This document shows, piece after piece, positions 1,675-55,937 of a stretch of 56,053 bases of DNA. How positions within the stretch are numbered: position 1 is the first letter of the stretch; each line of letters begins with the position of its first letter. This DNA comes from a virus (lineage: Duplodnaviria; Caudoviricetes): IMG/VR virus record IMGVR_UViG_3300047388_000165, positions 1 through 56,053 of that record, one strand, 5' to 3'. The notes below the pieces were generated by a model. That model made no database searches. It saw nothing but the letters and a program-made list of their open reading frames with translations, and had not been told where the DNA came from. The translations under genes and the position numbers were made by a program.

Positions 1675-1776
1675 AGGGCTGCTCCGAGAGATGCCCACGG
1701 TCGGGGATTGATTTCCCTTCGAGCGTGAGAATCACTCACCCGGTGCAATCAGCATCGGTTTACAAAGGACAGCAAT

Positions 1777-2268
1777 ATGCAGACTCAAAATGACGGACAA
1801 CTCGGACTAATCGGATTCGTTGACGACGCCATCAACCGCGTCTTCGCCCCGAAAGAGATCAAAGGCAAGAACGGCGCCACAGTGGGCACCTCAGTCACCA
1901 TGCGCTCTCGCAAGGACATTGCCGAAGCTCTCCAACTCAAGGGCAAAGACAACAAGGATGCGCTCGACGCGAAGATTCTCGAACAGTCCGACTCCGCCTT
2001 CCGGCAGGTCAAAGGCCAAATCGCCGGCCTCGGCAACGATTGGACGCTCGCCAAGGTGTCGCAACGCACCCTCGGCAATGGTGTCCGCCAAATCAGCGTG
2101 GTCGTAAAGGAAATCAAACGCCAAGTTGGCCCCAAGGACGAGGAAATCGCCAAGGCCCTCGGCTGGACCGTCGAACAGGTGCAGGAAGCCCGCAATCGCC
2201 AGGAAGCGGCGCTGGCCAAGAACACGGTCGACATGGAGCCCAGCGAAACTGCCCCGGTCAACGCCTGA
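1777..2268 (+). CDS. Hypothetical early protein with C-terminal HTH-like segment
   Basis: 163 aa; EEIAKALGWTVEQV; AAAGGACAG at 1764. Confidence 0.8.
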   Translation: MQTQNDGQLGLIGFVDDAINRVFAPKEIKGKNGATVGTSVTMRSRKDIAEALQLKGKDNKDALDAKILEQSDSAFRQVKGQIAGLGNDWTLAKVSQRTLGNGVRQISVVVKEIKRQVGPKDEEIAKALGWTVEQVQEARNRQEAALAKNTVDMEPSETAPVNA

Positions 2269-2320
2269 ACGATGCCACACTCAACACCGGGTCGAGGACA
2301 CTAAGACCCGGTATTTACCT

Positions 2321-2554
2321 ATGCCTATTCGACAAGCCACGGTTAAATCACTCGCTGAAGGCGCTATCAACGCCCTCACCAACATCAATGGCGGCAGCAC
2401 TCACCTGAATGTCCGAGATTGGATGTTCTGGAGTGGAAAACTCACACCAGACGAGCTGGCTGAGCTGTACCAGCAGATACTCGACGGAATGGTCGAGGTG
2501 TACGCGAAGAACGGTGTGCCTGTTGAACAGTTCAAGGAGATGCTACCAAAATGA
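2321..2554 (+). CDS. Hypothetical protein
   Basis: ATG at 2321 after hairpin 2286-2312; coupled to the next gene. Confidence 0.6.
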   Translation: MPIRQATVKSLAEGAINALTNINGGSTHLNVRDWMFWSGKLTPDELAELYQQILDGMVEVYAKNGVPVEQFKEMLPK

Positions 2555-2748
2555 ACACCAAATGGCTGTTAATACAGGCGTTTCTCAATCGCATACCCTG
2601 CCGCGTCGTCACTCCTGGCGGCGAAGTACTTCAGTTCAAGGTCATCAACCGAATTGAGCACGAGGACGGCAGCACACGCTCCTTTAATGTCGAGGGCTTC
2701 GGCATGACGGGACAACCACTCAAAGCCCACCTGAGAACGGATGACTGA
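2551..2748 (+). CDS. Hypothetical protein
   Basis: 65 aa, overlapping start/stop chain. Confidence 0.6.
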   Translation: MNTKWLLIQAFLNRIPCRVVTPGGEVLQFKVINRIEHEDGSTRSFNVEGFGMTGQPLKAHLRTDD

Positions 2749-2929
2749 TATGACTCAAATTGAAATTGACAACGAATTTGACCTCGATCGACTGAGGCGG
2801 AAGGAAAATGAAGCCTGGGAATTGGCCGGCTGCGCTCGCGTCGATCGTGATAAAACCGACGAAGCGCGGTGGACAGCTATTGCCCGCGCTATCCGTCAAC
2901 GAATGCTCGAACTGAGAGGTAGCCAATGA
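2741..2929 (+). CDS. Hypothetical protein
   Basis: 62 aa, coupled. Confidence 0.6.
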   Translation: MTDMTQIEIDNEFDLDRLRRKENEAWELAGCARVDRDKTDEARWTAIARAIRQRMLELRGSQ

Positions 2930-3336
2930 AATATTTCTGGTACGGAATGGCTATATGCGTCGGATGTGGCTGCATCACATCAGTTATTAAGGGCTGGCTG
3001 CGTCACCGTCGAAACGTGGAGACTTGGAATCAAATCATCGACGGCATGGTCGACAACCTGCACCTGCTCCATGAGGAGACAGGGAAACTGGCCGAAGACT
3101 GGAATCGCTGGACGCTCGATGAGCGCAAGAAAGCTCTCTTTGATGTGATTCTGGGAGAGCGATTGAAGGACGACTCAAACCACGAGCGCAGCAAAGCAAT
3201 GGCTGATTGGACGCTCGAATTGCATACTCAAGACAATCCGACCCTTGCATGGAATCAGCACATCTACGCGATAATGATTCACCGCCGAATGGAGCTGGCC
3301 AAACGAGCAGTTCGAAAGGCGAAGCAAGCCAAGTAG
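2926..3336 (+). CDS. Hypothetical protein with N-terminal membrane anchor
   Basis: GAGG SD; hydrophobic N-terminus. Confidence 0.65.
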   Translation: MKYFWYGMAICVGCGCITSVIKGWLRHRRNVETWNQIIDGMVDNLHLLHEETGKLAEDWNRWTLDERKKALFDVILGERLKDDSNHERSKAMADWTLELHTQDNPTLAWNQHIYAIMIHRRMELAKRAVRKAKQAK

Positions 3337-3410
3337 GCAAAGCACGGTGCGAGACGATCTCACTCGCTCCCTCTTTGCCAGCATGGTGCTGGTGATACGA
3401 AAGGACAGAA

Positions 3411-3674
3411 ATGCAGAACATTGACGCCAAATTCCTGACAGCCTCGCAATTCCGACGGCTGGCAGATATCAAAGACCAAATCGCCGATCTCGAAAACGAG
3501 TTTAACACGATTGCCACCACTGGAACTCCAGTGAGTATGCCGGAGCCCGCACAGTTCAGGAATAAAACATACGTGGCCGGCACAGGCACTCACCGGAAGA
3601 TTACTCGCTGGACACCTGAACGCCGCGCGAAGTTTCGTCGCACAATGCGGCTGAAGCGCGAAGGGAAGCTCTGA
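3411..3674 (+). CDS. Small basic putative DNA-binding protein
   Basis: Coiled coil plus Arg-rich WTPERRAKFRRTMR tail; AAAGGACAG at 3400. Confidence 0.7.
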   Translation: MQNIDAKFLTASQFRRLADIKDQIADLENEFNTIATTGTPVSMPEPAQFRNKTYVAGTGTHRKITRWTPERRAKFRRTMRLKREGKL

Positions 3675-3742
3675 CCGTTCCACTCCCGGCTCCTTGCGAG
3701 CCCGGACTGAAGCGATCATGCTTCATAACCAAAGGACAGAAC

Positions 3743-3934
3743 ATGAGTGCAAAAAATATACCGATTGAGTTCCCTCAAACCTCCACAGCCACCGAGCAGG
3801 GCGATGGCGTGCTGATTCACTGGACGTGTCAACCGCGGTTGACAGGCAAACGTCTCGTGGTGCTCTGCGCCACCGTCGAATCCACGCGCACCGTGAAGCG
3901 CATGACGAAATATCTGCGCGAGGAGGGGCGATGA
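3743..3934 (+). CDS. Hypothetical protein
   Basis: AAAGGACAG at 3731; contains the palindrome (CQPRLT). Confidence 0.65.
   Translation: MSAKNIPIEFPQTSTATEQGDGVLIHWTCQPRLTGKRLVVLCATVESTRTVKRMTKYLREEGR
3827..3844. repeat. Dispersed palindrome TGTCAACCGCGGTTGACA
   Basis: Perfect 18-bp copy. Confidence 0.95.
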
Positions 3935-4401
3935 AAGTGACGCTCAAACGACTCTCTGCGTGCCCGTGCGGGTTCCACGCCCTGAATGACGACATCAAGC
4001 TGGGGACTGAGTATGAGGTCCAAGAGAACAGGCCGAAGCTGACCTTCGACTTCATCTGTGGTAATTGCGGCCACAAACAGAAGCTGATGGGGATATCAGT
4101 GACGCGCGATGGCGGACCTCCTGGATATCTTCCTGAGCTGCTGTTCAGTGACGAGGGCCAGAAGATGATGAAACTCACCGACATCTTGAGCGAAACCCAG
4201 CTCGACGAAGTGGAGCGCATCTTGAACGAGAGTGAGGGTGATCGGATGAAGGCCACGTTGGTGCTCCGGCGATACCTCTCGATGTTCAAAACTGAGCTGG
4301 AAGCCAAAGGCGTGGTCAGCGATTATCTTGCCTACGTCATCGCCTACAAGCAGTGGACTGGTGGCGACAACGGCGACCGCGTGGTCGCATTCAGCGCATG
4401 A
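3931..4401 (+). CDS. Hypothetical protein with CxC/CxxC
   Basis: AGGAGG SD before ATG at 3931; possible second start within. Confidence 0.6.
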   Translation: MKVTLKRLSACPCGFHALNDDIKLGTEYEVQENRPKLTFDFICGNCGHKQKLMGISVTRDGGPPGYLPELLFSDEGQKMMKLTDILSETQLDEVERILNESEGDRMKATLVLRRYLSMFKTELEAKGVVSDYLAYVIAYKQWTGGDNGDRVVAFSA

Positions 4402-4666
4402 GGCCGTACGTGGATGGCCGGCGCAGTCGAATCCTGATGCGTAGGCCTCGCCAAAAACAAAAGCGTTATCAACGTCGCAAGGGCTACTGCTGGCCGGATT
4501 GGGGCAGCAAGCCTGAGTCTCGACATTGGATGGAAAACACTTAAATTCAGCACTCCGCTGTTTCATACTTGCAACAGCGGACTCCTGGAGTTAAAAGGAC
4601 AGGGCGTGAGTGAAGCACGCAATGGGGGATACCCCCTTCACTGTTAGCTAACAAAGAAAGAACAGT

Positions 4667-4957
4667 ATGAACGCAAATCAAGTTCAAGCCTTCGTGGACT
4701 CGGAAGTCCAGAAGCTCGCCGATCGCCGCATCAAGCCGCTCATCGCGGCCATCAACGGCGAACTGGAGACTCAGCGCCAGAACAATGCTGAGAAGGCTCG
4801 TCTCGACGCGCTCAACGCGGAAGGCGACAAGCGCATTGCCGCGTTGCAGGTTGATCTCGGCAAGGCCAACACGGAGGTCAACGACCTCGCGGTGAAGCTG
4901 GCAGAAGCCACGGCTGGCGCTGCCAATACCGGCTCGACGACTCCTAGCGCAAGCTAA
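4667..4957 (+). CDS. Coiled-coil protein upstream of the ubiquitin-like cassette
   Basis: 96 aa heptad pattern; AAAGAACAG at 4657. Confidence 0.75.
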   Translation: MNANQVQAFVDSEVQKLADRRIKPLIAAINGELETQRQNNAEKARLDALNAEGDKRIAALQVDLGKANTEVNDLAVKLAEATAGAANTGSTTPSAS

Positions 4958-5000
4958 GCGTCGAGATAACCAACCAGAACAATAACCAAAAGGACACAAA

Positions 5001-5237
5001 ATGTTCCGATGCAAAGTTATGTATGGTCCCGACGAGTCTGAGTTCACGAGCGATACCCCGATCAAGATTGGGGATATCCGCCGTGCCCAGGAACTGCGCG
5101 ACGAACTCGGTTACGGTGATAACGTCAATCTGATGATTGGCGGAATTGCCATGCCCGACGACGCGATGGTTCCGCAGAACTCGGTCGTGGTGATCGAAAC
5201 CGCTGCGAACCGCAAGGCCGAACTGGCCTGCGCGTAA
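5001..5237 (+). CDS. Ubiquitin-like (beta-grasp) protein
   Basis: 78 aa; pattern KVMYG...IGDIR...LGYGDNVNLMIGG..MPDD.....VVVIETAANRKA; context with E1/E2/JAB. Confidence 0.7.
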   Translation: MFRCKVMYGPDESEFTSDTPIKIGDIRRAQELRDELGYGDNVNLMIGGIAMPDDAMVPQNSVVVIETAANRKAELACA

Positions 5238-5249
5238 GCAGTAAACCGT

Positions 5250-5302
5250 GTGCCCCAGTGGTCCGAGTAACGAGCTCGGCTGCTGGGGCACTTTTCTTGT
5301 TT
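5250..5302 (+). terminator. Intrinsic terminator/attenuator after the Ubl gene
   Basis: GTGCCCCAG...CTGGGGCAC stem followed by TTTTCTTGTTT. Confidence 0.7.
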
Positions 5303-5318
5303 AATCCAAAGGAAAGAT

Positions 5319-6065
5319 ATGGAAACAAAATTACAGTTTATTATTGCGGAGAACGGCACGTTCTACCGCGAGGACATCACCCGGAGAGAGATCGTGGTGG
5401 GGGATGCGCTGCAACGCGCGCTCAACGCCAACGTCGTCTCGAAGGTTCACAACTTACTTGAACTGCCCAGCCATGGAGCGGTTCACTTGGTTTATACCCA
5501 GCAGGACGCCACCTGGAACTTCTCGGTTCCGATGGAAACCATCAACTTTCGCACGACGTTCAAACCGATCGTCAACGAGGCGAAATACAAAGACCAGCTC
5601 TACCCGACGTTTGCCCCCAAGGAGACGACGGATACGATCATGGAGATCGAGTGGTCCCGGGAAAAAGCCATGGTCAGTCAGGACGCATCCATGCGGATTC
5701 GCTTCCTGGTGCAGGTCAAAGAACACAACGGCGGCTATTACGCGCATGACCACTACCTCTTCGCCTTCGATGGCCGGGGAGTCGCGTATCGCATGCCAAT
5801 CGCCAATCTCTTCGACACGTGTCAGGTGTGCATGGGCACCTACGATTCGAAGTCCACTACCGCCATCGGATCAGTCATTCTGGCGCTGCGGCAATTCCGC
5901 TCCGCTTCGTGGAACGCAGACTTGTTTCGCAACAAGGATACGGTCTGGAAATTCATCCGGTTCAAAGCACTGGAAAAAGGGTTCGAAACGCAATCGATCG
6001 TGGGAGCGTGGACTACGCTCTGCGAAAAGGTTGCCCCACCGCAACTCAAATTCTGTGACGTATGA
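5319..6065 (+). CDS. Prokaryotic E2-like conjugating enzyme (PRTRC protein B / E2 family D-like)
   Basis: YRMPIANLFDTCQVCMG (PN...xC catalytic region) and FRSASWNADL. Confidence 0.7.
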   Translation: METKLQFIIAENGTFYREDITRREIVVGDALQRALNANVVSKVHNLLELPSHGAVHLVYTQQDATWNFSVPMETINFRTTFKPIVNEAKYKDQLYPTFAPKETTDTIMEIEWSREKAMVSQDASMRIRFLVQVKEHNGGYYAHDHYLFAFDGRGVAYRMPIANLFDTCQVCMGTYDSKSTTAIGSVILALRQFRSASWNADLFRNKDTVWKFIRFKALEKGFETQSIVGAWTTLCEKVAPPQLKFCDV

Positions 6066-6418
6066 GCGAGACGTATCCTGAAGCGTTGCAGGTGTTATTG
6101 AACTGCGAAAACGCCACCAACCTGAAAGACCATATCGATCGCACCATCGTGAGCGTTGGCAAAGCGATGGAGATTGACACTCTCGAATATCACTCCGGGA
6201 TGTATGCCCGCAAGGACTTCACCGTCGGCGCATTAGTTGCGTCTGATCCTGAAGTTCGCCGACTGGTCAGTCGAGCGGGAGTGAATATTCGGGACTTCGA
6301 CACGAACATCTCCATAGCGTCACGGGCGATTCAGGAGGAGATGAACAAGCGCAGCCCGATTGGTGAGAAGATCGCCAAAGTCTTGAGGGATACCTGCGCC
6401 AATAGGAGCGTCCGATGA
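6062..6418 (+). CDS. Hypothetical protein within the ubiquitin-like cassette
   Basis: 118 aa, ATGA-coupled on both sides. Confidence 0.7.
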   Translation: MSETYPEALQVLLNCENATNLKDHIDRTIVSVGKAMEIDTLEYHSGMYARKDFTVGALVASDPEVRRLVSRAGVNIRDFDTNISIASRAIQEEMNKRSPIGEKIAKVLRDTCANRSVR

Positions 6419-7395
6419 AATCCACCATCTATATTATCGGGTGCGGTGGTGTGGGTAGTTGGCTGGCGCCGTCGCTGGCCTTGCTCACCTCCCCAAAGCA
6501 AATCGTGCTCATCGACGCGGACATGCTGGAAGAGAAGAATCTCGACCGGCAGTTGTTCAAACCGGAAGACATTGGTCGCTCGAAGGCGGAAGCGCTGGCT
6601 GAGCGATACGGGTGTAATCACCTGCACGCTTGGTTCTCGGAAGGACTGATGGAGTTCCATGAGGACGACTGGCTGATCGTGTGTGTCGATAACCACATGG
6701 CACGCAAGGCGGCACTCTCAGTCTGCGACCGGTATGGCACATTGGCCATCTTCGCGGCCAACGAGACGCACTCCGCTGAGGCATACTTCTATCAACGCGA
6801 GTGGATGAATCAACCACTCGATCCCCGGGTTTACTTCCCTAATATTCTCACCGACAAGTCCAATGACCCGCGCTCGCGGACCATCGGCTGCACGGGAGAG
6901 GCGCAGGTGGAAAACCCCCAGCTAGTAACGAGTAACGCACTGGCGGCATCTTTGGCCGGCCACCTTTTCGCGCTGTGGCATCTCCACGCGCCCACGGTCA
7001 AATCAAAGACAATTCCATTCCTACCATACCGTCTCGTGGCGAACCGAACTCGCCTGGAGACTCACTTAATCAAAGACAAACTGAAAGGACAGACAGATGA
7101 GCGATCCCAACCTACACCCGGAGGAGCAGTCGTGGCCGACGCTGCCAATACTTCCGGACCCACCGAGTCCACCGGAGCCAGTGGACCAGAGCCCACAGCA
7201 GCCAATATTGCCAATAATCCAAATGGAGACAGTGCAGGACGACACACTGGACGGGCTGACTCGAATAACGGACACGTCGGCAGCTCAAGCAGTGCCGAGT
7301 CAACCGCGGTTGACACAGGACGAGACGCCGTCGCCGTCCGAGACACCGCCCCCATCCACGTCGGAGCCAGAAGTGGAGGCGGATATGGCGGCTAA
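6415..7395 (+). CDS. ThiF/E1-family adenylyltransferase with a low-complexity tail ending in GG
   Basis: IIGCGGVGSW, DAD..EEKNLDRQ, CVDN, candidate catalytic Cys in IGCTG. Confidence 0.9.
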   Translation: MKSTIYIIGCGGVGSWLAPSLALLTSPKQIVLIDADMLEEKNLDRQLFKPEDIGRSKAEALAERYGCNHLHAWFSEGLMEFHEDDWLIVCVDNHMARKAALSVCDRYGTLAIFAANETHSAEAYFYQREWMNQPLDPRVYFPNILTDKSNDPRSRTIGCTGEAQVENPQLVTSNALAASLAGHLFALWHLHAPTVKSKTIPFLPYRLVANRTRLETHLIKDKLKGQTDERSQPTPGGAVVADAANTSGPTESTGASGPEPTAANIANNPNGDSAGRHTGRADSNNGHVGSSSSAESTAVDTGRDAVAVRDTAPIHVGARSGGGYGG

Positions 7396-8038
7396 AAAGA
7401 AGGTGGCCATCGCAATGGATGGCGCCATCAAAGTCGTGGAGGTGCCTGAGCCGCTCAAACGCAAGTGCGAGCTGAAGGACGTGTTGCCACAGGGCGTGAT
7501 TCAGTTGCTGGCGTCCGCGCCACACAACGAAACCGTCCGCAACGTGCTGCTCGCGCATTTGAAAGTGCCAGTGCCTGAGGAGCTGAAGAGCTACAAGGAC
7601 ATTCAGGACTGGATCGAGTTCAACATCGAGCCTCCCAAGGCGCTAGCGGCGAAAGGCGGAGTTCCTATACCGGCTTCACGTGCGGAGGTGGTCGCGGTCG
7701 CTATCGCCTTGGATGATAGGGAGCATGGAACGTGTTCTTACTCCCGCGACATGTGGGGGCGGGGAACTGTCAACGTGACGCAACATGACATCGTCACGGC
7801 AGCGGCGGAATCGGATGACTCGGATGAGTTCTGGGGGAGAGTGCGAGATGTAATCTACGAAGAAGGCCCAACCGATCACATCGAGATAGAACCGGTTCCG
7901 AACAGCGCGTCACTCAGTGATTGTGACGTGCATGACAGCGACGGGCTGACTGTGGAGATACAGACGGCGGGCTACCAATCGGTCAAGGACTTCCTTGCCC
8001 GGGTCAATCCCGAGGCTTACGAACGACTCTTTGAGTAA
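7097..8038 (+). CDS. Hypothetical acidic protein of the cassette (alternative start 7385)
   Basis: AAAGGACAG at 7084 before ATG 7097; GGAGG at 7375 before ATG 7385; Pro-rich N-terminus overlaps the E1 gene. Confidence 0.7.
   Translation: MSDPNLHPEEQSWPTLPILPDPPSPPEPVDQSPQQPILPIIQMETVQDDTLDGLTRITDTSAAQAVPSQPRLTQDETPSPSETPPPSTSEPEVEADMAAKKKVAIAMDGAIKVVEVPEPLKRKCELKDVLPQGVIQLLASAPHNETVRNVLLAHLKVPVPEELKSYKDIQDWIEFNIEPPKALAAKGGVPIPASRAEVVAVAIALDDREHGTCSYSRDMWGRGTVNVTQHDIVTAAAESDDSDEFWGRVRDVIYEEGPTDHIEIEPVPNSASLSDCDVHDSDGLTVEIQTAGYQSVKDFLARVNPEAYERLFE
7298..7315. repeat. Dispersed palindrome (exact 16-bp core)
   Basis: AGTCAACCGCGGTTGACA. Confidence 0.95.
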
Positions 8039-8064
8039 ATTAACCAGCAACCAAAGGACAGAAA

Positions 8065-9291
8065 ATGAAAATGAAAGTGAACGGGAATATCGTCGAGGAC
8101 GATGTTTCCATAGAGGGGCTGCTTGAGTGCAAGCTGTCCCATCATATCAAAGAAACCAAGGGCACGGTGATTTACACCGGGCCAAAGATTCCACCGGAAG
8201 TGTGGAATGAAGTGCTCTCGTTCTTCAAGTGGTGCTACACCACCTACAAGAGTGAGTGCCAGGTGAGGCTGTTCGTCAGTCCCACCCAGAACACGTGGCG
8301 AGCGTGGGCGTTCCCACAGGAAGCCAAGACGGGCATGACCGCTCGTGAGATCGACAACGAGGACGCGCGGACTCAACGGGCCGAGCTGAACATGAATCCA
8401 CCGGATTGGATTTACTTCGGCACGGTTCATCATCACTGTGGCGCTGGAGCTTTCCAGTCGGGCACGGATGAGGAGAACGAGAAGAATCAGGACGGGCTGC
8501 ATATCACCGTTGGCAAGATGGATGAGAAGAAGCATGACCTGCACGCGCGGTTCTACCGCAAGGGGCTCAAGTTCACGCCGGACTTGAGCTGGTTCTTCGA
8601 TGTGGAGCCGGCACTGGAACAGGTCAGGACGTGGATGGCTTCATCGCCAGTCACACTCGACCCGAAGATCAATCCCACATTGTTCCTTGGCCACAAGGAC
8701 AAAGACGACCTCGCCAAAAGTCTGATGTGCGAGCCGTCGGAGGTGGAGTTCCCGCAGGCATGGAAAGACAACATCATCGAGATCAGGCCGGTGACGCCGA
8801 CCTATCCCGTGACGCCTTACTTCTCGGCCAGCTCTCCAGCGGGTAGCAATGGGACGACACACGGAGTCACGCACGTTCCGTCGGTTTACAGTCCAGACCA
8901 CGATCCTGTGTGGCAGCGAACGCGAAGGGCATGGAGTGAGATTCTGTTTCACTGCGTTGTGCACGAGATTGCCCCGGAGGATATCGAATCCGCCATCGGC
9001 GACCTTGCGCTCAAGGACTTCGCCCCCAACGTCGTCGTCATGGCCTGTCGTCACCACAAGGTCGACCCGGACGATCTGGAACGGGAGATGCCAACGAACC
9101 TTGCTCAAGCAATAGTGGAGGAGGCGATGTCGCAGGCGCAGGAGCGGCATGAGAGAACTGCTCCCACCCCAAAACAAAACACCAGCACGCCAAGAAGTCA
9201 GGCAAAAAGCGAGGGAAAAAAGGCCGATGGAGAGGCCCCCGCTTCTGGAACCGTTGATGGGGACGACTGGTCCCACCTCTCAGTAACTTAA
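8065..9291 (+). CDS. JAB/MPN (JAMM) metalloisopeptidase, PRTRC protein A-like
   Basis: SEC, GTVHHHC, AFQSGTD (E...HxH...S..D), GLHITVG; AAAGGACAG at 8053. Confidence 0.85.
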   Translation: MKMKVNGNIVEDDVSIEGLLECKLSHHIKETKGTVIYTGPKIPPEVWNEVLSFFKWCYTTYKSECQVRLFVSPTQNTWRAWAFPQEAKTGMTAREIDNEDARTQRAELNMNPPDWIYFGTVHHHCGAGAFQSGTDEENEKNQDGLHITVGKMDEKKHDLHARFYRKGLKFTPDLSWFFDVEPALEQVRTWMASSPVTLDPKINPTLFLGHKDKDDLAKSLMCEPSEVEFPQAWKDNIIEIRPVTPTYPVTPYFSASSPAGSNGTTHGVTHVPSVYSPDHDPVWQRTRRAWSEILFHCVVHEIAPEDIESAIGDLALKDFAPNVVVMACRHHKVDPDDLEREMPTNLAQAIVEEAMSQAQERHERTAPTPKQNTSTPRSQAKSEGKKADGEAPASGTVDGDDWSHLSVT

Positions 9292-9298
9292 CCAATCT

Positions 9299-9359
9299 GG
9301 GTGTGGGGCCGCAAATACACGTGGTTGCGACAGGCTCCTGTCCGGCCAGCCCCACACCC
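9299..9359 (+). other. Multi-branch RNA stem-loop after the cassette
   Basis: GGGTGTGGGGC/GCCCCACACCC outer stem with two inner hairpins. Confidence 0.55.
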
Positions 9360-9385
9360 TTCTCAATTTCCGTAATACAAAAACT

Positions 9386-9700
9386 ATGAACATCGAAGTA
9401 ATCCACGGCGGAGGACTCCCTGAGCTGGGAGTTTTTCTTGGTAGCGCCATCGACAGCATGCCGCCAACAGTCGCGCAGGCGATGCTCGGCGGGATATTCG
9501 CCAACATCGTCGGCAACATTTCCGACGAAAACTGGGAAGCCCTCAAGCAGGCGGCGCAGCTACCGTGTGAGTGTGGCGACCCCGACTGCAAGGTTTCCAT
9601 CACAGCGGTAATCGAAGCGGGCGATAAAGCCCGCAAGCAGTTCAAGAAATGCCAGGGCGAGCCGCCCAGCAATTCTGAGGAGAAAGGTTTCTCGGTATGA
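9386..9700 (+). CDS. Hypothetical protein
   Basis: 104 aa with CECGDPDC. Confidence 0.7.
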   Translation: MNIEVIHGGGLPELGVFLGSAIDSMPPTVAQAMLGGIFANIVGNISDENWEALKQAAQLPCECGDPDCKVSITAVIEAGDKARKQFKKCQGEPPSNSEEKGFSV

Positions 9701-9882
9701 AGCGTAAAACCAGCAAGCGTATTGCTGAAATCTACAACGAGGTCGAAGCAGGGTTTGATGAGAAGGCGACCGAGTTTCTGCTGGAAGTCACCGCTGAGCG
9801 CGTCCGGCTCGAGCGGCTAATTACTGATTGCGACCATGGACACGTCGCAGATGCCCTGATTCAAGAAGGAGTTTACAAATGA
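9697..9882 (+). CDS. Hypothetical protein
   Basis: 61 aa, coupled. Confidence 0.6.
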   Translation: MKRKTSKRIAEIYNEVEAGFDEKATEFLLEVTAERVRLERLITDCDHGHVADALIQEGVYK

Positions 9883-11081
9883 ACAACAACGATCAAATCC
9901 CAGGGGCCGAAGTGCCCGAAGCAGAAGTCATCAACGAAACCACCACAGTCGAGCGACGCGCGGACACACCTCCACCAGTTAAACGCGAAAGCGTGACACC
10001 CGAGCAGGCCAAAGTGGATGCCGTGGCCGAGTTGACCATGACTGCCTACGCCAAAGCCAGTGAGTTGGTGTTGACACCCGACGAACAGCTCGCGCTACAA
10101 AAAGACTTCCCGGACGAGGCGTTCCGACCGGGAGCAGCTGGCAAGGAGAACCTACTCTACATCGAGCACGCCTTCCTGCGTGGCCGGCTCAACGAAGTGC
10201 TTGGACTCGGCCAGTGGTCCATCATCCCACGAAAGCGATGGGCTGAGGACTTCATACTCCCAGCCACCCGCGACCGAGCTGAGACACCGGCCAGCCGGGT
10301 CTACGTCGAGGCGATGCTCGTCATCCGCGGTTGTTTCGTGGCGGAAGCCATCGGGGACATGGTGTATTACAAGAACAACCAGTCCCAGAACTACGGCGAT
10401 GCGGTCGAAGGTGCCAAGACGGCAGCCCTTCGTCGCTGCACCAAAGAGCTGGGTATCGGACTCCAAGCGTGGAAGAAGGACTGGTGCGAGGGATGGTGGC
10501 AGCGAAACCGAGGCGGCAGACCCGCTCAGAATGCCCCAGGACGCTCTGGGGGGTCCCAGAGTCCACCCCCAGCCCGTCCGGCAGCGCCTGCCCAGCAAAG
10601 CGCTCCAAGACCTGCCGCCAGAACGGCTGATGTGGTGCCTCCCACAGACGCAACTGAGGAGCAGAAAACCCGGTTCATCACCTCTCTGTCCAACATCAGG
10701 ACAGACGCATTGAGGTTCTTCGTTTCGAAGGGTCACCTGACCGACCTTCAGCAGCTCGAAGCCCTGCCGTTGAAACACGTGCCAGCGACCAAGAAGCAGT
10801 ACGACGACGTGATGGCGCAGATCGAGGCGTTCTCTACTCAGCCAGGGCCGGGCGCAACCGAGTTGTGGCGAGCGTATCCAATGCCGTGGGGGAAGAACAA
10901 GGACACACCGCTGGGCCAGCTCGAGAAAAACTACCTCTATGGACTCGTGATGAACTACGAGGTCGAGCGCGAGTACAATGGTGCCCCCAAGAAGGACGAG
11001 ACGATTGCCAAGGACGAGGAGTTCCGGCGCATGCTCGACGACGCTGGTCGGCACTACGATTGGATCAAGGAAAAGCAGTAA
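9879..11081 (+). CDS. Rad52/Mgm101 (Sak)-like single-strand annealing protein
   Basis: LYIEHAFLRGRLNEVLGLGQW, GDAVEGAKTAALRRCTKELGIGLQAW. Confidence 0.85.
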   Translation: MNNNDQIPGAEVPEAEVINETTTVERRADTPPPVKRESVTPEQAKVDAVAELTMTAYAKASELVLTPDEQLALQKDFPDEAFRPGAAGKENLLYIEHAFLRGRLNEVLGLGQWSIIPRKRWAEDFILPATRDRAETPASRVYVEAMLVIRGCFVAEAIGDMVYYKNNQSQNYGDAVEGAKTAALRRCTKELGIGLQAWKKDWCEGWWQRNRGGRPAQNAPGRSGGSQSPPPARPAAPAQQSAPRPAARTADVVPPTDATEEQKTRFITSLSNIRTDALRFFVSKGHLTDLQQLEALPLKHVPATKKQYDDVMAQIEAFSTQPGPGATELWRAYPMPWGKNKDTPLGQLEKNYLYGLVMNYEVEREYNGAPKKDETIAKDEEFRRMLDDAGRHYDWIKEKQ

Positions 11082-11102
11082 ACCAGAACAAAAGGACAGA
11101 AC

Positions 11103-11381
11103 ATGATAACGAAATGGCTAAAAAATAGAGTCCAGCGCAGGCTGGACCAACAACAGCAACGCGCTGACGCGCAACTTAAACTGGAACAGCAACTCGTCGA
11201 ACTTGGACCCCAACTCAAGGACACACTCATGAAGGCTGGTATTTTCCCGTTCAGCCGAATCAATCGCAATCTCGAGGGAAATTACATCGAGATGTATGGC
11301 ACCCTCAACGGACGGCTGGTGAAGGGTGAGATGACTGCCAAAGGGGCATTCCTCATCAAATACGTGGAGGGGTTCAAATGA
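11103..11381 (+). CDS. Hypothetical protein
   Basis: 92 aa; AAAGGACAG at 11091. Confidence 0.7.
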   Translation: MITKWLKNRVQRRLDQQQQRADAQLKLEQQLVELGPQLKDTLMKAGIFPFSRINRNLEGNYIEMYGTLNGRLVKGEMTAKGAFLIKYVEGFK

Positions 11382-11890
11382 GAGACAATCCGTTCAAACG
11401 AAGACTGGAGGCTGTCGCTGACATCGCCTTCGTCGCAGGGGCATATCGCTACCATAGCGGAGATTCCCGGAAAGACGTGGAGGACTTCATCGCGTGGGCT
11501 GACGAGTTTGAGTCGACGCGCACGTGCCCACCAGACGGCAATGAAACCTACAACGGCAAGGACTACATGACTGCCGTTGCGGAGTTCGCAGAGATCAAGC
11601 TGAAGGAGGAAGGTGTTGGAAAGGCCGGCCACGCAAAAGCAAATGCCCTCAGCACATTCCTGAGCGTGTGGGGCGACGATCAATACCTCGTTACCGACAT
11701 TGGGCCAAAACTGGGTTGTGGTGAGTGCGACGCATTATTCAACCTCCTGAAGGCGTACGGCTTCACGGACACAGCAGAAGCGCTGCTCGATTCACACTCC
11801 CTTGAGGATGATGACGACGATTATCCTGAGCACGTTACCCGACGGGACAAAATGAAACAGGAAGAACCACGAGAAGACGTTCCTTTTTAA
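11378..11890 (+). CDS. Hypothetical protein with SSB-like acidic DVPF tail
   Basis: 170 aa ending EDVPF. Confidence 0.65.
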   Translation: MRDNPFKRRLEAVADIAFVAGAYRYHSGDSRKDVEDFIAWADEFESTRTCPPDGNETYNGKDYMTAVAEFAEIKLKEEGVGKAGHAKANALSTFLSVWGDDQYLVTDIGPKLGCGECDALFNLLKAYGFTDTAEALLDSHSLEDDDDDYPEHVTRRDKMKQEEPREDVPF

Positions 11891-11893
11891 CCT

Positions 11894-12748
11894 ATGAAAA
11901 TCACCAACAAATTCGGACTGCCTGAACCACTGGTCAACGCGGTCAAGTACTCCACTTACACCAAGGGCGAGGCTGACTTCAGTGTCACCGAGCTTATCAA
12001 ACCACCACGCATCGCAGCGCTGGAGATTCTGCACGACGAGGCACTCGAAGAAGACGCGAGCGACCGTCTGTGGATGCTCATGGGCTCAGCCGGCCACGAG
12101 GTTTTGCGACGGTCATCGAACGGCGGCATCGTGGAAGAGCGGTGCATCGTTGAGTTCGAAGGCAAGAAAATCTCCGGTCAGCTCGACTATGCGGTCGCGC
12201 TCAAGGAAATCATCGACTACAAATTCGTCTCGCTCTGGGCCATCCGAGATGGCGTCAAACCGGAGTGGGAACAGCAGCTCAACCTCTACAAGTGGATGGC
12301 TGAGCAATACGGCGTCACGGTGGAGAGCCTGAAGATCATCGGCATCCTCCGAGACTGGTCCAAGCCGGAAGCGCGGCGCAATCCTGACCTGCCGCAGTCG
12401 CAAGTCGTGGTGCTGCCAGTGAGAATCTGGGAGACGCACATGGTTCAAGACTTTCTCAGAATCCGCATCCACGAACACGAGCAGGCACGGTCTGGAAACC
12501 TTCCATTCTGCACTCCCGAAGAGACGTGGGAGCGGCTTGAGAAATACGCGGCGATGAAGAAGGGCAACCAGCGAGCCTCGAAAGTTGAGGACACCAAGTT
12601 CGCCATCGGACAGTGGATAGCGTCTCAAGCGAAGCCATCTCAATTTGAGATTGAGGTGAGGCCAGCGGAGAGGCCGCGTTGTGAGTCGTACTGCCCGTGC
12701 AGTGGTGTCTGCGAACAATTCAACGATTGGAAGAAAGGACAGCAATGA
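11894..12748 (+). CDS. PD-(D/E)XK (Cas4/RecB-like) exonuclease
   Basis: GSAGH, ISGQLD, IIDYK, QLNLY, C-terminal CxxxCxxxxxC. Confidence 0.85.
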   Translation: MKITNKFGLPEPLVNAVKYSTYTKGEADFSVTELIKPPRIAALEILHDEALEEDASDRLWMLMGSAGHEVLRRSSNGGIVEERCIVEFEGKKISGQLDYAVALKEIIDYKFVSLWAIRDGVKPEWEQQLNLYKWMAEQYGVTVESLKIIGILRDWSKPEARRNPDLPQSQVVVLPVRIWETHMVQDFLRIRIHEHEQARSGNLPFCTPEETWERLEKYAAMKKGNQRASKVEDTKFAIGQWIASQAKPSQFEIEVRPAERPRCESYCPCSGVCEQFNDWKKGQQ

Positions 12749-37811: not shown

Positions 37812-37902
37812 ATCTCGGTAGGCTCACATTCGAGCCAGTTGATGTTTAGTTGTTTCACCCGGGAGAGTTGTAACCCTCCCGGGTGGTGAGAAGCAACCCA
37901 GA

Positions 37903-39435
37903 TTACAGGTCGAGGTTCGGATCGGTCAGGGCCGGCACCGGCTGCGGCTGCGGCACAGGTCCGTCTTGAGTGCCGCTCGGGACACCGCAAGGGAACGTTC
38001 CATACAGCGCGGTGAAGTCCAACGGGATCGGGCAGGACGGCAGCGTGCTGTCGTAGCTCTGCACTGGATATCCCGGATCGGACGAGCAGGTGTCGATTTC
38101 CGGCACGCAGAACTGCTCGCGTTTGTGCAGATACGTTTCGAGGAACTCGTAGTGCATCGGGCGGACATAATACATGAAGTCCGCGATGAACTGGCCTTTG
38201 TTGCGGCGCTTGTTCTGGATGACGTTTCCAGAGGCGTCGGCACCAAGGTTGTCCATGACGAACTGCCACTTGCCGCCGAAGTCCCGATGACCGAAGGGCA
38301 TCTCGGGATTGAGCGAGGTCGCATCCGGCACCAGGAGCTCCATACCCATTTTGTGATGGATTTGGCTGAGGCAGAAATGCGCGCGATCGAAGTCGGTGTT
38401 GGGCTGCGAGCCGAGGCCGGCGGCACCACCCGCGCCAGTCGTGATCTGATTCACGAAGGGCAGCACCACCTGGTAGCGATACCGGTTGCCGTTGCCACCA
38501 TTGGCGCCAGCACCGAGGTCCGCCACGAAGTTGAACCGAAGGCCCATCGGGTCCATGCGGGACATGAAGTTACCGATCGAACCGGAATAACCATAGCGCC
38601 AGTACTTCGTGCTGTCGTCGAACTGCGTGAAGCGCCAGTTGCCGAGAACATTGGGGTTGTCGCCACCACCGATGCCTTGCTGGCCACCGAGATGGTCGAG
38701 GCTCCAGATGGTGTCCATGTCGGTCACCAACTCGATGAACGGACTGGTGTCCTTGAACGGGTTCTTCCCGGCGTAACCTTTCAACATCAGGTTGTTGAAC
38801 CGGTTCTGCAACATCTGCGGAACCAGTTTGAAGATGCGCGTCGGGGGCACGCTCGCATCGAAATAAACTTCGTCTCCCGCGGCGTTGTTGTTCCACTGGA
38901 AGTTGAACACGCCGTCCGTGGCGGCCTGACCGAAGTTCTTGTTGGCAACTGCCCGCATGAACGACCACGTGAGGTGGCGGCGGCGGAGGAAGTTGCTCGA
39001 AATCGCGGTGGTGGCGGGCTTGAGGATTTCGCTGATGATCTGCTCGATATGCTCCTGGGCAGCGGTGATGTGCATGTCCTGGTCATAGCAGAACAGCGGC
39101 GTGGACCAGTACTGTTGCTCGGCATACCATGTGAGCCGGTCAGCACCCCAGCCGACTTGATGCTCCACTTGATCGCAGGGGTTACCCACGCAACCGGGGC
39201 CGTTGGCGATCTTGCGAGTCCAAGGCTTCGTGACGTTGGGGAACACGCTGCGGAAACGATCCTGGGTCACCTCGACGGGCGTACCCATCTCGATGGTTCC
39301 AGTGGAAACGTTATACAGCCAGCCATCGGTGGGCCGGATATCTTCCATGATGATCTCGTCAAATCGAGGCGTTTGATCGACGAGGAACTGCGGGAAGTCG
39401 CAAGCTGCAATGATTTGGCCTGTTGGGCACGACAT
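37903..39435 (-). CDS. Major capsid protein
   Basis: 510 aa, strongly biased codons, downstream of the scaffold, own promoter and 3' hairpin (37856-37885). Confidence 0.75.
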   Translation of the reverse strand: MSCPTGQIIAACDFPQFLVDQTPRFDEIIMEDIRPTDGWLYNVSTGTIEMGTPVEVTQDRFRSVFPNVTKPWTRKIANGPGCVGNPCDQVEHQVGWGADRLTWYAEQQYWSTPLFCYDQDMHITAAQEHIEQIISEILKPATTAISSNFLRRRHLTWSFMRAVANKNFGQAATDGVFNFQWNNNAAGDEVYFDASVPPTRIFKLVPQMLQNRFNNLMLKGYAGKNPFKDTSPFIELVTDMDTIWSLDHLGGQQGIGGGDNPNVLGNWRFTQFDDSTKYWRYGYSGSIGNFMSRMDPMGLRFNFVADLGAGANGGNGNRYRYQVVLPFVNQITTGAGGAAGLGSQPNTDFDRAHFCLSQIHHKMGMELLVPDATSLNPEMPFGHRDFGGKWQFVMDNLGADASGNVIQNKRRNKGQFIADFMYYVRPMHYEFLETYLHKREQFCVPEIDTCSSDPGYPVQSYDSTLPSCPIPLDFTALYGTFPCGVPSGTQDGPVPQPQPVPALTDPNLDL

Positions 39436-39610
39436 AAAGTTAAAATTTTCTGCGTTTTATTTTAAGACGATCGGTTCGATTAAAGCGCACACGCGCAAAC
39501 GATGACCGTCAGGGAACACTTTATGAAGTCGGCTGGGAGCTTCGATATTACGCCGATGTGCCGAGTTCAGATTATAGATGCGAACTCGACCAACAAAGCA
39601 TCTGAATGGC

Positions 39611-39639
39611 TTCTACACCCGTAGAGCAGGTGGTGTCAA
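39611..39639 (-). promoter_or_regulatory. Putative capsid promoter
   Basis: TTGACA at 39639-39634, 17-18 bp spacer, weak (G)TAGAA -10. Confidence 0.5.
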
Positions 39640-39640
39640 A

Positions 39641-39943
39641 CTATTTTATGTCCGCAGCCGGTTGACACGCTCTCTGAAGAAAGTCTTCCAGGCGCTTAAT
39701 CGCGTCTGGAAATAAGATCGGCTGCTTGTCGGGTTCGTTAATCCAGGACCGTTTGGAGGCACGTCGATTGTAGTACTCATCCTTCCCGGAATCCGGCACC
39801 CCGCAAGTGAGAGTCTTTTTGGCATAGAGATCGCGCACCGATTGTTTATACAAACACCCGGCGCACACCGGGTCATGGCAGGAGTCCTTCTTGATAGCCG
39901 GCTCTCCACATTCACAGATGAATGGCTTTTTAGTTTGGGGCAT
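39641..39943 (-). CDS. Small Zn-finger-like protein
   Basis: MPQTKKPFICECG...VCAGC. Confidence 0.55.
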   Translation of the reverse strand: MPQTKKPFICECGEPAIKKDSCHDPVCAGCLYKQSVRDLYAKKTLTCGVPDSGKDEYYNRRASKRSWINEPDKQPILFPDAIKRLEDFLQRACQPAADIK

Positions 39944-39977
39944 AAAAAAGCCCGGTGCAACTCGTAAGCACCGGGCT
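39944..39977 (-). terminator. Intrinsic terminator
   Basis: AGCCCGGTGC/GCACCGGGCT 10-bp stem plus U6. Confidence 0.85.
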
Positions 39978-40027
39978 AACCAGAGTTCCAAAGGACAGGG
40001 AACAGGGGACAGGGAACAGTATCGCTG
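39944..40027 (-). ncRNA. Putative trans-acting antisense sRNA
   Basis: Promoter upstream; CU-rich tandem seed CTGTTCCCTGTCC x2 + TTTGG; intrinsic terminator; complementary to early-gene AAAGGACAG motifs. Confidence 0.6.
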
Positions 40028-40032
40028 TGGCT

Positions 40033-40061
40033 ACTTAAACTCACATTCAATAAAATGTCAA
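40033..40061 (-). promoter_or_regulatory. Putative sRNA promoter
   Basis: TTGACA-17 bp-TTAAGT overlapping the scaffold stop codon. Confidence 0.55.
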
Positions 40062-41380
40062 CGCGCTTTCTCGCGCAACTTCTGAAACATGTTGGCCTTG
40101 GCACCACCAGGTCCCGCCGGCCCGCCAGTCGTCGCCGACCGACCCGGACCTCCCGGCGGCTCCGTGCCTTTGTATTGAGCCAGCTCTTCCTTCAGGGCTT
40201 TGTTGGCGGCGGAGAGAGACTCCACTTCGCCACGCAGTGCGCCCCATGCTGCCGCGCGGTTCCTCACTGCCGCGTGACGGCGGATCACTGAGGCGCGTTC
40301 CTCGGGCGTCAGCTTCGGATCAGCCGGGTTCTGGGAAAAGGCTTTGTCAACCAACTCGAAGCCTTTGGCGAGGCGCTGATTCCAGTGCTCATCGCCCTCG
40401 CGGGGCTTGAATAATGAACCATACTTTTCATCCTTCAGCACAGCTTCATTCTCCTGCTTCCACGTGTTCGAGATTACCTGAGACAATTCTCCCATTGCCT
40501 TCTTCTGTGCCTCAGTCTCCTGCTGCTTCTTGGTGAGGCCGGTCTTTTTGGCCTCTTCGAGCGCAGCAGCCTGCTTGTCGTAGAGTCCGCGAATCTCATT
40601 ACGGTGGGCCATGACATCGTTGGCGAATGGCCCGAAGAACTCGTCGGCCATCTGCCGGGCTTTGGCCAGCGGAGCGTTGACGATCGTCAGCAAATCGTTG
40701 GGATGAACGTCGCGCTCACCACCCTGACCATCACCCACCTTAATGTCCTTCAGCTCAGCCATGGCAACCTTCCACGCTTTGTCGTAAGGCTCGACATACT
40801 TCGCCTTGAACTCCTCGGTCTGGGAGTAGTCCACGTAGGTCATGTGCTCCTCGAGCTGCTTGGCGCGGGCCTCAGCTTTGGCCGCGCGGTCCTCAAGGGC
40901 CTTGCGATCATTCTCGGGCGTGAGTTGCTTCCGCAGCTCAGCCAGTTCCGTTTCCGCTTTGGTGGCCTTACCTTTGTAATCCTCGACCAGCTTCCACGGA
41001 TTTGGCTTTTTGCCATCCTTACTGTCAACCGCGGTTGACACCTCACCCGGCTTGGCACCCTCGGCGGGAGGGGTGGTTCCGGCTGGCGCCTCACCGGGGA
41101 CGGGTGGATCAGCCGAAGCCGGCTTTGCTGGAGCGGCAGCCGCCGGCTTGGCCGGAGGAGTGGTAGTGGATGACCGGGGTCCCCCGGTGGACTTTTCCCC
41201 CAGCTTCTCAAATAGCTTGGCCTTGGCAGCACCGGGCTTCGGTTCTGGCGTGGCGGTGGGCCGGGTTCCAGGAGTGACGTGAATCTCACCAGCCGAGGCC
41301 GGCACAGCGCTGGGTGCGCCAGCGGCGGCGGGCCGTGCGGGAGCGGCGGGTGGTACGATGGTTGGAGCTTCAGCTGGCAT
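40058..41380 (-). CDS. Capsid scaffolding protein
   Basis: Pro/Ala-rich N-terminus and long coiled coil, between portal and capsid. Confidence 0.7.
   Translation of the reverse strand: MPAEAPTIVPPAAPARPAAAGAPSAVPASAGEIHVTPGTRPTATPEPKPGAAKAKLFEKLGEKSTGGPRSSTTTPPAKPAAAAPAKPASADPPVPGEAPAGTTPPAEGAKPGEVSTAVDSKDGKKPNPWKLVEDYKGKATKAETELAELRKQLTPENDRKALEDRAAKAEARAKQLEEHMTYVDYSQTEEFKAKYVEPYDKAWKVAMAELKDIKVGDGQGGERDVHPNDLLTIVNAPLAKARQMADEFFGPFANDVMAHRNEIRGLYDKQAAALEEAKKTGLTKKQQETEAQKKAMGELSQVISNTWKQENEAVLKDEKYGSLFKPREGDEHWNQRLAKGFELVDKAFSQNPADPKLTPEERASVIRRHAAVRNRAAAWGALRGEVESLSAANKALKEELAQYKGTEPPGGPGRSATTGGPAGPGGAKANMFQKLREKAR
41023..41040. repeat. Dispersed palindrome
   Basis: Perfect 18-bp copy. 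Confidence 0.95.
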
Positions 41381-41385
41381 AAATT

Positions 41386-55776: not shown

Positions 55777-55937
55777 TCGTTCTCGGGGAAAGAGGGTTGT
55801 TCGGAGAGGGAGTTGAACTCGCTGCTTTTGAGGTCCTTGTTTTCGGGGAGGTGATCTTCGACTGCCTGATCGAACCCTGCCTCGTCGTTCCGTTCGAGGG
55901 CGGCGATGGCTCGAGCCTCACCGGGAGGGGGGGGGGA
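55773..55937 (-). CDS. 3' part of the replication-initiator-like gene (joined to 24..407)
   Basis: In frame across the terminal overlap. Confidence 0.65.
   Translation of the reverse strand, partial: SPPPPGEARAIAALERNDEAGFDQAVEDHLPENKDLKSSEFNSLSEQPSFPENE

Follow-up and report, generated by a model that had tools for sequence, protein, structure and literature searches.

An uncultivated soil phage carries, between a scaffold-like gene and its major capsid gene, a short non-coding stretch with the anatomy of a small RNA gene: a sigma-70-like promoter, a predicted RNA of about 83 nt and an intrinsic terminator. The RNA is complementary to the ribosome-site motif that recurs in the early leaders of the same phage. 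Comparison with related genomes makes the stretch a credible candidate for an sRNA gene, one confined to a small group of closely related uncultivated soil phages. We think it probable that it is a real sRNA gene making a discrete RNA. That this RNA would act in trans on the ribosome-binding sites of the early leaders, and so shut off the early genes, is a possibility that we put forward tentatively.

The candidate unit and its genomic setting

The stretch of DNA analysed here (the window) covers an entire IMG/VR virus record; it is 56,053 bp long and has a completeness rating of 100%. Between about 1.8 and 17.9 kb, its + strand encodes a ThiF-family protein, an Mgm101/Rad52-like protein, a helicase and a protein with a weak Toprim match, and this part appears from those matches to be the early, replication-type region. 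The structural genes run along the - strand from 51.5 to 18.0 kb. No tRNA genes were found in the window, and no Rfam family reached its gathering score anywhere in it. The candidate unit lies on the - strand among the following features.

40058..41380, - strand: 440-aa low-complexity, coiled-coil-like ORF directly upstream of the RNA unit, called a scaffold by position only
40061-39944, - strand: the whole non-coding unit, promoter to U-run, between the scaffold-like and capsid genes, delimited by sequence inspection
40056..40061, - strand: -35 hexamer TTGACA of the putative promoter P1, invariant in the window and in the relatives G001, G002 and G003
40034..40039, - strand: -10-like hexamer TTTAAG, after a 16-nt spacer, within the invariant 13-nt block TGAGTTTAAGTAG, which is identical in the window, G001 and G002
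39944..40026, - strand: predicted non-coding RNA of about 83 nt, its 5' end placed about 7 nt after the -10 and its 3' end at the U-run
39993..40019 (40019-40007 and 40005-39993), - strand: tandem repeat, 2 x CTGTTCCCTGTCC with one C between, specific to the window
39992-39977, - strand: TTTGGAACTCTGGTTA, directly after the tandem repeat
39988..39998, - strand: anti-RBS core CUGUCCUUUGG, exact complement of CCAAAGGACAG
39977..39983, - strand: second box CUGGUUA, complement of TAACCAG, with (U)CUGGUU kept in G001 and G002
39944..39977, - strand: intrinsic terminator, a 10-bp G+C-rich stem with a 9-nt loop and U6, conserved in structure
39641..39943, - strand: Zn-ribbon-like ORF, 100 aa, CxCG..PA..CxxC, with homologues in G001, G002 and G003 (27-45% identity)
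39610..39639, - strand: P2, TTGACA-N18-TAGAAG with conserved block GGGTGTAGAAGCC, a capsid promoter common to the wider phage group
37903..39435, - strand: major capsid protein, 510 aa, assigned by structure-model matches

The initial annotation had described a promoter, a tandem repeat, a 10-bp stem and U6 in this stretch, and checking the sequence finds every one of them in place. Its framing of the -10 element, TTAAGT at 40038-40033 (- strand) with a 17-nt spacer, is an alternative to the one adopted here. The P1 hexamer TTGACA overlaps the TGA stop (40060-40058) of the 440-aa ORF. At the other end, the terminator arms lie at 39977-39968 and 39958-39949, with T6 at 39949-39944 (- strand), and the stretch predicted as RNA contains no ORF of its own. 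In the predicted fold of the window RNA, CUGUCCUUU forms the 9-nt loop of a 5-bp GUUCC/GGAAC stem, and opening the anti-RBS core is predicted to cost 1.5-5.6 kcal/mol.

A generic sigma-70 scan returned four sites against 8.5 expected, and neither P1 nor P2 is listed because their -10 elements are non-canonical (in P1, position 2 is not A). The terminator was missed in a generic scan that allows loops of up to 8 nt, its own loop having 9. Below the Rfam gathering scores of 45-50, the predicted RNA has matches of 21-24 bits at best. When contigs of four soil DNA runs were compared with positions 39300-40500, the element was covered only in the probable source run, with no variants.

All Foldseek matches listed for the 510-aa ORF (31 listed, 36 counted at E <= 1e-3) are HK97-fold shell proteins, and they include the major capsid proteins of phages and satellites (A4, N4, P22, T7 and others); two encapsulin shells appear from rank 41 (E 1.5e-3 and above), and the structure model used is of low confidence (pLDDT 54). 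This ORF has no Pfam or PHROG family above threshold, and a PDB sequence search gave nothing meaningful for it or for a 770-aa ORF. Neither the 440-aa scaffold-like ORF nor the Zn-ribbon ORF has a Pfam or PHROG family. Of 77 related loci, 63 have a scaffold-like homologue ahead of the capsid gene. The Zn-ribbon ORF begins with an ATG directly 3' of the U-run, without a Shine-Dalgarno (SD) sequence, and a 106-aa ORF (41706-41386) lies upstream of the scaffold-like gene (41380-40058).

Conservation of the unit in related phages

The 77 related loci were collected by a capsid search of viral contigs; the capsid alignment excludes L030, which has two stop codons in its match range. Among them, the window's unit was found only in L003 (G001) and L005 (G002), whose capsids are 90-91% identical. 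Across the window, G001 and G002 the flanking proteins have diverged, with 61-71% identity in the scaffold-like protein and 27-45% in the Zn-ribbon protein. Nevertheless, TTGACATTT (the -35 plus TTT) and the -10 block TGAGTTTAAGTAG are identical in all three; the 9-nt spacer segment that they enclose varies from phage to phage, in G003 as well. The 5'-most 20-35 nt of the RNA cannot be aligned among the three phages, yet they are CUGU-rich in each; the tandem CTGTTCCCTGTCC repeat is absent from G001 and G002, which have different CUGU-rich sequences in its stead. Further 3', both relatives keep CC(U)UUUGG, an interval of 5-6 nt and UCUGGUU, and the CC(U)UUUGG part is also kept in G003. The most conserved segment of the RNA (CCUUUGG, UCUGGUU) mirrors the most conserved segment of the early leaders. 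The terminator is the sole consensus structure, with 11 pairs of which three have changed on both sides with pairing kept, and all copies of the unit have a G+C-rich terminator stem plus U6-U7.

Such a pattern of conservation would be expected of a promoter, a seed and a terminator. It also supports the initial annotation's proposal of an independent small transcription unit, in that the putative promoter hexamers and the terminator are conserved in relatives and the remainder has diverged.

In G003 (L027; capsid 80% identical) the gap between the scaffold-like and Zn-ribbon ORFs is 6 nt and holds no unit. An analogous unit lies 3' of the Zn-ribbon ORF, directly before the capsid promoter P2, and consists of TTGACA-16-TTTAAT (block GTGGTTTAATAAA), about 20 unpaired nt with GUCCCUUGGUGGUUUA (core GUCCCUUGGUGG), and a 12-14-bp terminator. 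Because the order of the RNA unit and the Zn-ribbon gene is swapped in G003, the unit appears to be a self-contained module and not the leader of that gene.

Wider searches yielded no further independent copies. A DNA search of a phage collection with positions 37900-41400 gave no match. Promoter-pattern scans of viral and metagenome contigs returned 85 loci (L089-L173), all of which were examined; seven passed a simple filter and three of these are real, namely G001, G002 and L108, the last being a metagenome twin of G002 and not independent. The other four proved to be unrelated A/T-rich sequences. A covariance model (R1), run against 85 sources (1.11 Mb), recovered only its three training copies, together with their hairpins read on the reverse strand; the G003 unit escaped the model and was spotted by eye. 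An attempt to name the host through capsid relatives led to only three MAG contigs, whose labels (Gemmataceae, Pedosphaera and Bryobacteraceae) belong to three different phyla, and was discarded as unreliable.

Could the unit serve only in cis? The terminator would then end the 106-aa/scaffold-like operon and insulate the Zn-ribbon gene and the capsid promoter, the promoter block would give low read-through transcription, and the short RNA would be a by-product without a trans target, its complementarity to the leaders incidental. A terminator right after the scaffold-like gene, followed by the capsid promoter, is indeed common in the wider group (L017, L018, L019, L046), in which TTGACA...GGnGTAnAAGCC precedes the capsid leader of L004, L007, L008, L012, L016 and L027. 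In several of the wider-group relatives the P2-type TTGACA overlaps the scaffold-like stop, as P1 does in the window. Another conserved promoter-like site lies upstream, at 41757, and the composition-matched pairing controls described below are weak in G002 and G003, which also suits this explanation. However, a terminator alone leaves unexplained why the -35 and the 13-nt -10 block about 80 nt upstream are conserved exactly while the spacer is free to vary, and why the CCUUUGG and CUGGUU boxes are conserved when their surroundings are not. In G003, moreover, the unit sits after the Zn-ribbon gene and directly before a promoter, so that its own promoter would drive nothing but the short RNA. 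On balance we consider a purely cis-acting role somewhat doubtful.

Complementarity to the early leaders

The proposal that the RNA acts in trans starts from the leaders of the early genes. The motif AAAGGACAG occurs nine times in the window, all on the + strand, against 0.44 expected from 100 dinucleotide shuffles (sd 0.69, largest 3). Seven of the nine copies sit 2-4 nt 5' of the ATG of early ORFs of 63-408 aa. An eighth, at 4594, precedes a 13-codon frame only and lies inside a conserved promoter-like sequence (TTGCAA-N17-TAAAAG), and the ninth is the complement of the late-strand RNA unit. The early leaders share a longer consensus, (A)ACCAAAGGACAG, sometimes with AACCAG before it. The leaders concerned are as follows.

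8041..8067, + strand: leader TAACCAGCAACCAAAGGACAGAAAATG of the 408-aa early ORF, the best predicted target
11081..11105, + strand: leader of the 92-aa early ORF, the second predicted target
1763..12747, + strand: span of the other motif-bearing early leaders, at 1763, 3400, 3726, 4989, 7084 and 12734; the promoter-embedded copy at 4594 is also inside it

The 408-aa early protein has a sub-threshold JAB match only. The initial annotation had listed six matches to the early leaders (8041, 3726, 11081, 4594, 1763 and 4657), all of them correct, but it overlooked three exact copies (3400, 7084 and 12734) and a near copy (4989). The window, G001, G002 and G003 each retain the motif in some 8-10 early leaders. 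In the window, 14 of 23 early start regions have an SD core, compared with 4 of 31 late ones, the late start codons being longest-ORF guesses. Because the late genes are largely SD-less, an anti-SD-like RNA would be selective.

Taken alone, a reverse-complement 9-mer somewhere along 56 kb is no rarity (about 0.2 expected on each strand). The antisense copy owes its significance to the extension to an 11-mer together with TAACCAG, to its promoter-like and terminator-like flanks and to the comparison with relatives. The complement of the element reads TAACCAG-N6-CCAAAGGACAG, and the nearest leader is that of the 408-aa gene, with TAACCAG-N5-CCAAAGGACAG at 8041. The combination AACCAG-N-AAAGGAC is found on the early strand only, in 2-3 leaders per phage, apart from the antisense copy.

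Among the four phages, perfect complementarity to the motif over at least 9 nt occurs in the window only (11 nt). The G001 core carries an inserted A (CUGUACCUUUGG) that makes a 1-nt bulge in the middle of the duplex, the match shrinks to 7 nt in G002, and a central mismatch interrupts it in G003. The complementarity reported in the initial annotation is thus exact in the window but interrupted or shortened in its relatives. Since the target motif itself is invariant in all four phages, the drift of the pairing argues that the GGACAG-pairing part of the RNA is not strongly constrained. The covariation of seed and ribosome-site motif that the initial annotation had anticipated was not seen, because the paired blocks do not vary. 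One apparent instance in G003, a leader with AAGGGAC fitting the core GUCCCUU, was set aside when the 302-aa ORF behind it turned out not to be an orthologue of the 92-aa gene (no BLAST hit).

Beyond this clade, the early leaders of the sister clades G004 and G005 (capsid 74-76%) are uniform too but follow another motif, TTACTGAAAGGAAA (6-10 copies), of which there is no antisense copy. Uniform early leaders are therefore a family trait that needs no partner RNA and, since the leader motif is independent of the RNA, the RNA would be a lineage-specific addition if it acts on leaders at all. This weakens the interpretation offered in the initial annotation. No enrichment of AAGGACAG was detected in more distant genomes. 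In L041, L042 and L053 a short promoter/terminator unit contains AAUCCUUAA, the complement of which, TAAGGATT, is not enriched (1-3 copies), and G011 has no dominant upstream 8-mer.

To rank potential targets, we scored each phage's own RNA against its own start regions by cofold ddG (dimer minus monomers). In the window, the 408-aa gene ranks first (ddG -24.1) and the 92-aa gene second (ddG -21.9), and the motif is present in seven of the top nine among 54 curated start regions (Mann-Whitney p 3.6e-5). The sets for the relatives were limited to genes whose N-terminus could be placed by tblastn from the window (33, 31 and 24 of the 54). Motif-bearing starts are again favoured in G001 (p 0.0037; 4 motif-bearing of 33 mapped start regions) and in G002 (p 1.2e-4; 7 of 31), where the orthologous leader of the 408-aa gene ranks third and first, respectively. 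Unfiltered sets of 160-166 start regions give p values of 1.8e-5 for the window, 1.3e-4 for G001 and 3e-6 for G002. With the RNA of G003, motif-bearing starts are not enriched (p 0.12; 11 with the motif of 144). The pairing scan suggested in the initial annotation, for which cofold ddG served as a surrogate for IntaRNA, thus places the motif leaders at the top in three phages but not in the fourth.

Controls temper this ranking. Plain duplex energies compared with 300 dinucleotide shuffles give z from -2.3 to -5.6. When only the seed is shuffled and intramolecular structure is included, z is -1.66 in the window (3 of 100 shuffles as good) and -3.11 in G001 (0 of 100), and it is -0.93 in G002 (18 of 100) and -1.04 in G003 (16 of 100), so that this composition-matched control is significant in only one or two of the four phages. 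The weak z values imply that much of the predicted affinity is due to composition. An unrestricted genome-wide RNAduplex scan found the motif in 0 of the 21 best segments in the window (the RNA's own locus excluded), 2 of 21 in G001 and 1 of 21 in G002; it is dominated by long imperfect duplexes with G-rich segments and is therefore uninformative as a target predictor.

These results bear on the possibility that the unit makes a real trans-acting sRNA with its main targets elsewhere, such as host SD sequences of the AAAGGA type or other phage RNAs, the early leaders being at most secondary. The RNA has an invariant, anti-SD-like core, (U)CC(U)UUGG(U), that falls short of the full phage-specific motif; the phage-specific, CAG-pairing part of the RNA drifts, and the G003 RNA does not favour its own early leaders. 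Against such a reading, the phages' own leaders come out on top among phage start regions in three genomes, and we judge it unlikely.

The antisense copy might also be a relic, an inverted partial duplicate of an early leader that is decaying without function. Its reverse complement does read as a leader without a start codon, most like that of the 408-aa gene, with the N6 against N5 noted above; the motif-pairing part has decayed in G001, G002 and G003, and a lone reverse 9-mer in a genome would be no great coincidence. But a decaying copy would hardly keep promoter hexamers, two boxes and a compensatory terminator selectively conserved amid neighbouring sequence saturated with changes, and we give this explanation a small chance.

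Proposed mode of action, precedents and significance

Our preferred reading, repression of the early leaders in trans, would work as follows. The sigma-70-like promoter over the scaffold-like stop (TTGACA, 16 nt, TTTAAG) would start a transcript of about 83 nt, which would end at the strong intrinsic terminator that may also close the upstream operon. Over its 5' two thirds the predicted RNA is rich in pyrimidines and similar to the anti-Shine-Dalgarno end of 16S rRNA. Its boxes CUGUCCUUUGG and CUGGUUA would complement the (A)ACCAG..CCAAAGGACAG of SD-dependent early leaders, which are transcribed from the other strand. Base pairing over the SD sequence of these leaders, predicted to be best for the 408-aa and 92-aa genes, would block 30S binding and lower the synthesis of early proteins, and the SD-less late genes would be spared. 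What the sequences show is the anatomy of the unit, its conservation, its complementarity to the leaders and the ranking of targets; a firing promoter, an accumulating discrete RNA and translational repression through pairing are our inference.

The physiological role is a further step. A lytic-cycle switch would combine uniform early leaders of the SD type, SD-less and A/U-rich late leaders, and an anti-SD-like RNA from the head module that silences the early regulon; at present we hold this scenario to be plausible but on the doubtful side. As the leader motif is common to relatives, the RNA could also exclude superinfecting kin. The early-to-late switch and the immunity factor envisaged in the initial annotation are conjectural roles.

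Two other layouts deserve comparison. In a lambda-type Q unit, a single late promoter and a terminated leader precede the whole late operon. By analogy with PR'/6S-tR', P1 could be a late promoter at which a Q-like factor lets polymerase pass the terminator, controlling the capsid-to-tail genes; the order of promoter, short transcript, strong terminator and structural genes fits, and the striking invariance of the promoter region would suit a factor-binding site. Yet structural genes lie on both sides of the unit (the capsid gene downstream, the scaffold-like gene and the 770-aa ORF upstream), the capsid gene has its own conserved downstream promoter P2, which the terminator abuts in G003, and a Pfam scan of 46 different ORFs, a subset of the total, turned up no Q-like family. 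The chance of this arrangement is very slim. A type III toxin-antitoxin-like module, with promoter, tandem RNA repeats as antitoxin, terminator and toxin ORF in the order seen in the window, is scarcely conceivable, as in ToxIN-like systems a series of RNA repeats, each about 30-36 nt long, is followed by a terminator and then by the gene of an endoribonuclease toxin, whereas the repeats here are 13 nt long, only two in number and confined to the window, the downstream ORF is a 100-aa Zn-ribbon-like protein without a family match, and the relatives contradict the module, the order of ORF and RNA unit being reversed in G003.

The closest precedents for the proposed mode of action are c4 (immI) of phages P1 and P7 and the CI RNA of phage P4, RNAs of about 80 nt that, as the candidate would, act in trans through two short boxes complementary to a ribosome-binding site. 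The c4 and CI RNAs are processed from the leader of the operon that they control, one operon each. In contrast, the candidate has its own putative promoter and terminator, and lies on the opposite strand 27-38 kb from its presumed targets, which would number about 8-10 leaders. According to a 2025 review, c4 binds the ant mRNA around the ribosome-binding site, with the complementary sequences probably in loops (PMC12197685); the 9-mer of the window is likewise in a loop of the predicted fold. The c4 and CI families are not among the six matches at E <= 1 in an Rfam search of the RNA.

Short RNAs with their own terminator are also found in RF02278 (Betaproteobacteria toxic small RNA) and RF02837 (Burkholderia anti-hemB), and RF02278 members share with the candidate a pyrimidine-rich 5' motif. 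The RF02278 RNAs have an anti-SD mode of action. Their length is given as 57-92 nt and their function as unknown in one source (PMC4603805). Both families are chromosomal, unlike the phage candidate. They are among its best sub-threshold Rfam matches, and membership in either was rejected: RF02278 scores 21.4 bits (gathering score 50) and RF02837 21.2 bits (gathering score 49.5), with an alignment mostly over the terminator.

Outside these families, T4 RegA is a translational repressor of many early mRNAs that occludes their ribosome-binding sites; the proposed outcome, late shut-off of early genes, is the same, but the effector is a protein in T4 and would be an RNA here. C-rich or CU-rich anti-SD sRNAs of bacteria, such as the staphylococcal RsaE and RNAIII, use unpaired pyrimidine-rich motifs, sometimes repeated, to pair with the SD sequences of several mRNAs. 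These RNAs are host-encoded and unrelated in sequence, and the candidate seed also takes in phage-specific sequence next to the SD (CAG, plus CC 5' of the SD). The 2025 review also cites P22 Sar and lambda OOP, small RNAs of phages whose pairing takes place at or close to a ribosome site (PMC12197685). They lie opposite a single target and are fully complementary to it, whereas the candidate is far from its presumed targets and partly complementary to them.

To our knowledge, phage sRNAs that act on the phage's own programme come from a handful of temperate model phages, and each RNA acts on one operon. A search of open-access literature, which included passages of the 2025 review (PMC12197685), turned up no case of a phage RNA that shuts off an early regulon of several genes by way of a ribosome-site motif common to them. 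Even if the unit had no function in trans, it would present a clean case of a conserved module of promoter, short RNA and terminator that shifts its position relative to a neighbouring gene. If the proposed trans-action is true, it would give this uncultivated phage lineage a compact and portable mechanism for an early-to-late switch, and would provide a rationale for the split between SD-rich early genes and SD-less late genes.

Early and late start regions

Early and late genes of the window differ in their start regions. A Shine-Dalgarno (SD) core precedes 14 of 23 early genes (+ strand, 1.8-17.9 kb), whose SD-type leaders are strong, compared to 4 of 31 late genes (- strand, 18-54.8 kb), for which the starts are longest-ORF guesses. 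Late leaders are mostly A/U-rich and devoid of an SD, those of the capsid and scaffold-like genes among them.

In the stretch 4569-4666 (+), one early copy of the motif, AAAGGACAG at 4594, sits within a promoter-like TTGCAA-N17-TAAAAG that is kept in both closest relatives, G001 and G002. A GGGGG-ATA-CCCCC hairpin and then a 96-aa gene follow on its 3' side. With a conserved promoter-like site around it and a hairpin between it and the gene, this copy is therefore something other than a normal ribosome site.

The initial annotation also placed a ubiquitin-like cassette among the early genes, for which three proteins of the region are listed here.

6415-7395, early region: ThiF-family (E1-like) protein, E = 4.4e-18
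8065-9291, early region: 408-aa protein, JAB match at 17.8 bits, below the threshold of 25
9828-11081, early region: Mgm101/Rad52-like protein, E = 2e-13

On these assignments the cassette is half supported.

The Zn-ribbon-like ORF and the capsid leader

39943-39641, - strand: Zn-ribbon-like ORF, with its ATG directly 3' of the terminator U-run and no SD

This arrangement is the same in the window, G001 and G002, unlike in the next relative, G003, where the ORF begins 6 nt past the stop of the scaffold-like gene. The protein evolves fast (27-45% identity). Between this ORF and the capsid promoter, G001 carries ~400 bp extra (L003 ~5380-5790) that is absent from the window and G002.

The region ahead of the capsid gene (39639-39436 in the window, - strand; loci L003, L005, L027, L008 and L012 in relatives) holds a conserved promoter, TTGACA...GGnGTAnAAGCC, and the capsid leader. 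The leader is ~170-200 nt long, with boxes such as GCCGACTTC conserved across distant relatives, and it may be a structured leader RNA.

A repeated palindrome and the record ends

The perfect 18-bp palindrome TGTCAACCGCGGTTGACA has eight copies in the window, four of them perfect, versus zero expected.

3827-3844, 13776-13793, 28572-28589, 41023-41040: perfect copies
7298, 23951, 24491, 50758: imperfect copies, 1-2 mismatches

Most copies fall within ORFs, on either gene strand. AACCGCGGTT occurs seven times in G001 and zero times in G002 and G003. The palindrome is a candidate regulator binding site, or a candidate methylase- or nuclease-related site. Long G-runs occupy positions 1-25 and about 55920-55940, near the end of the record; these are possibly assembly-end artefacts or terminal sequences.

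Early leader motifs in the sister clades

Both sister clades, G004 (L180-L182) and G005 (L183-L185), have a uniform early leader, TTACTGAAAGGAAA, which differs from that of the window and stands before 6-10 early genes. Extended ribosome-site motifs specific to each lineage apparently characterise this phage group.
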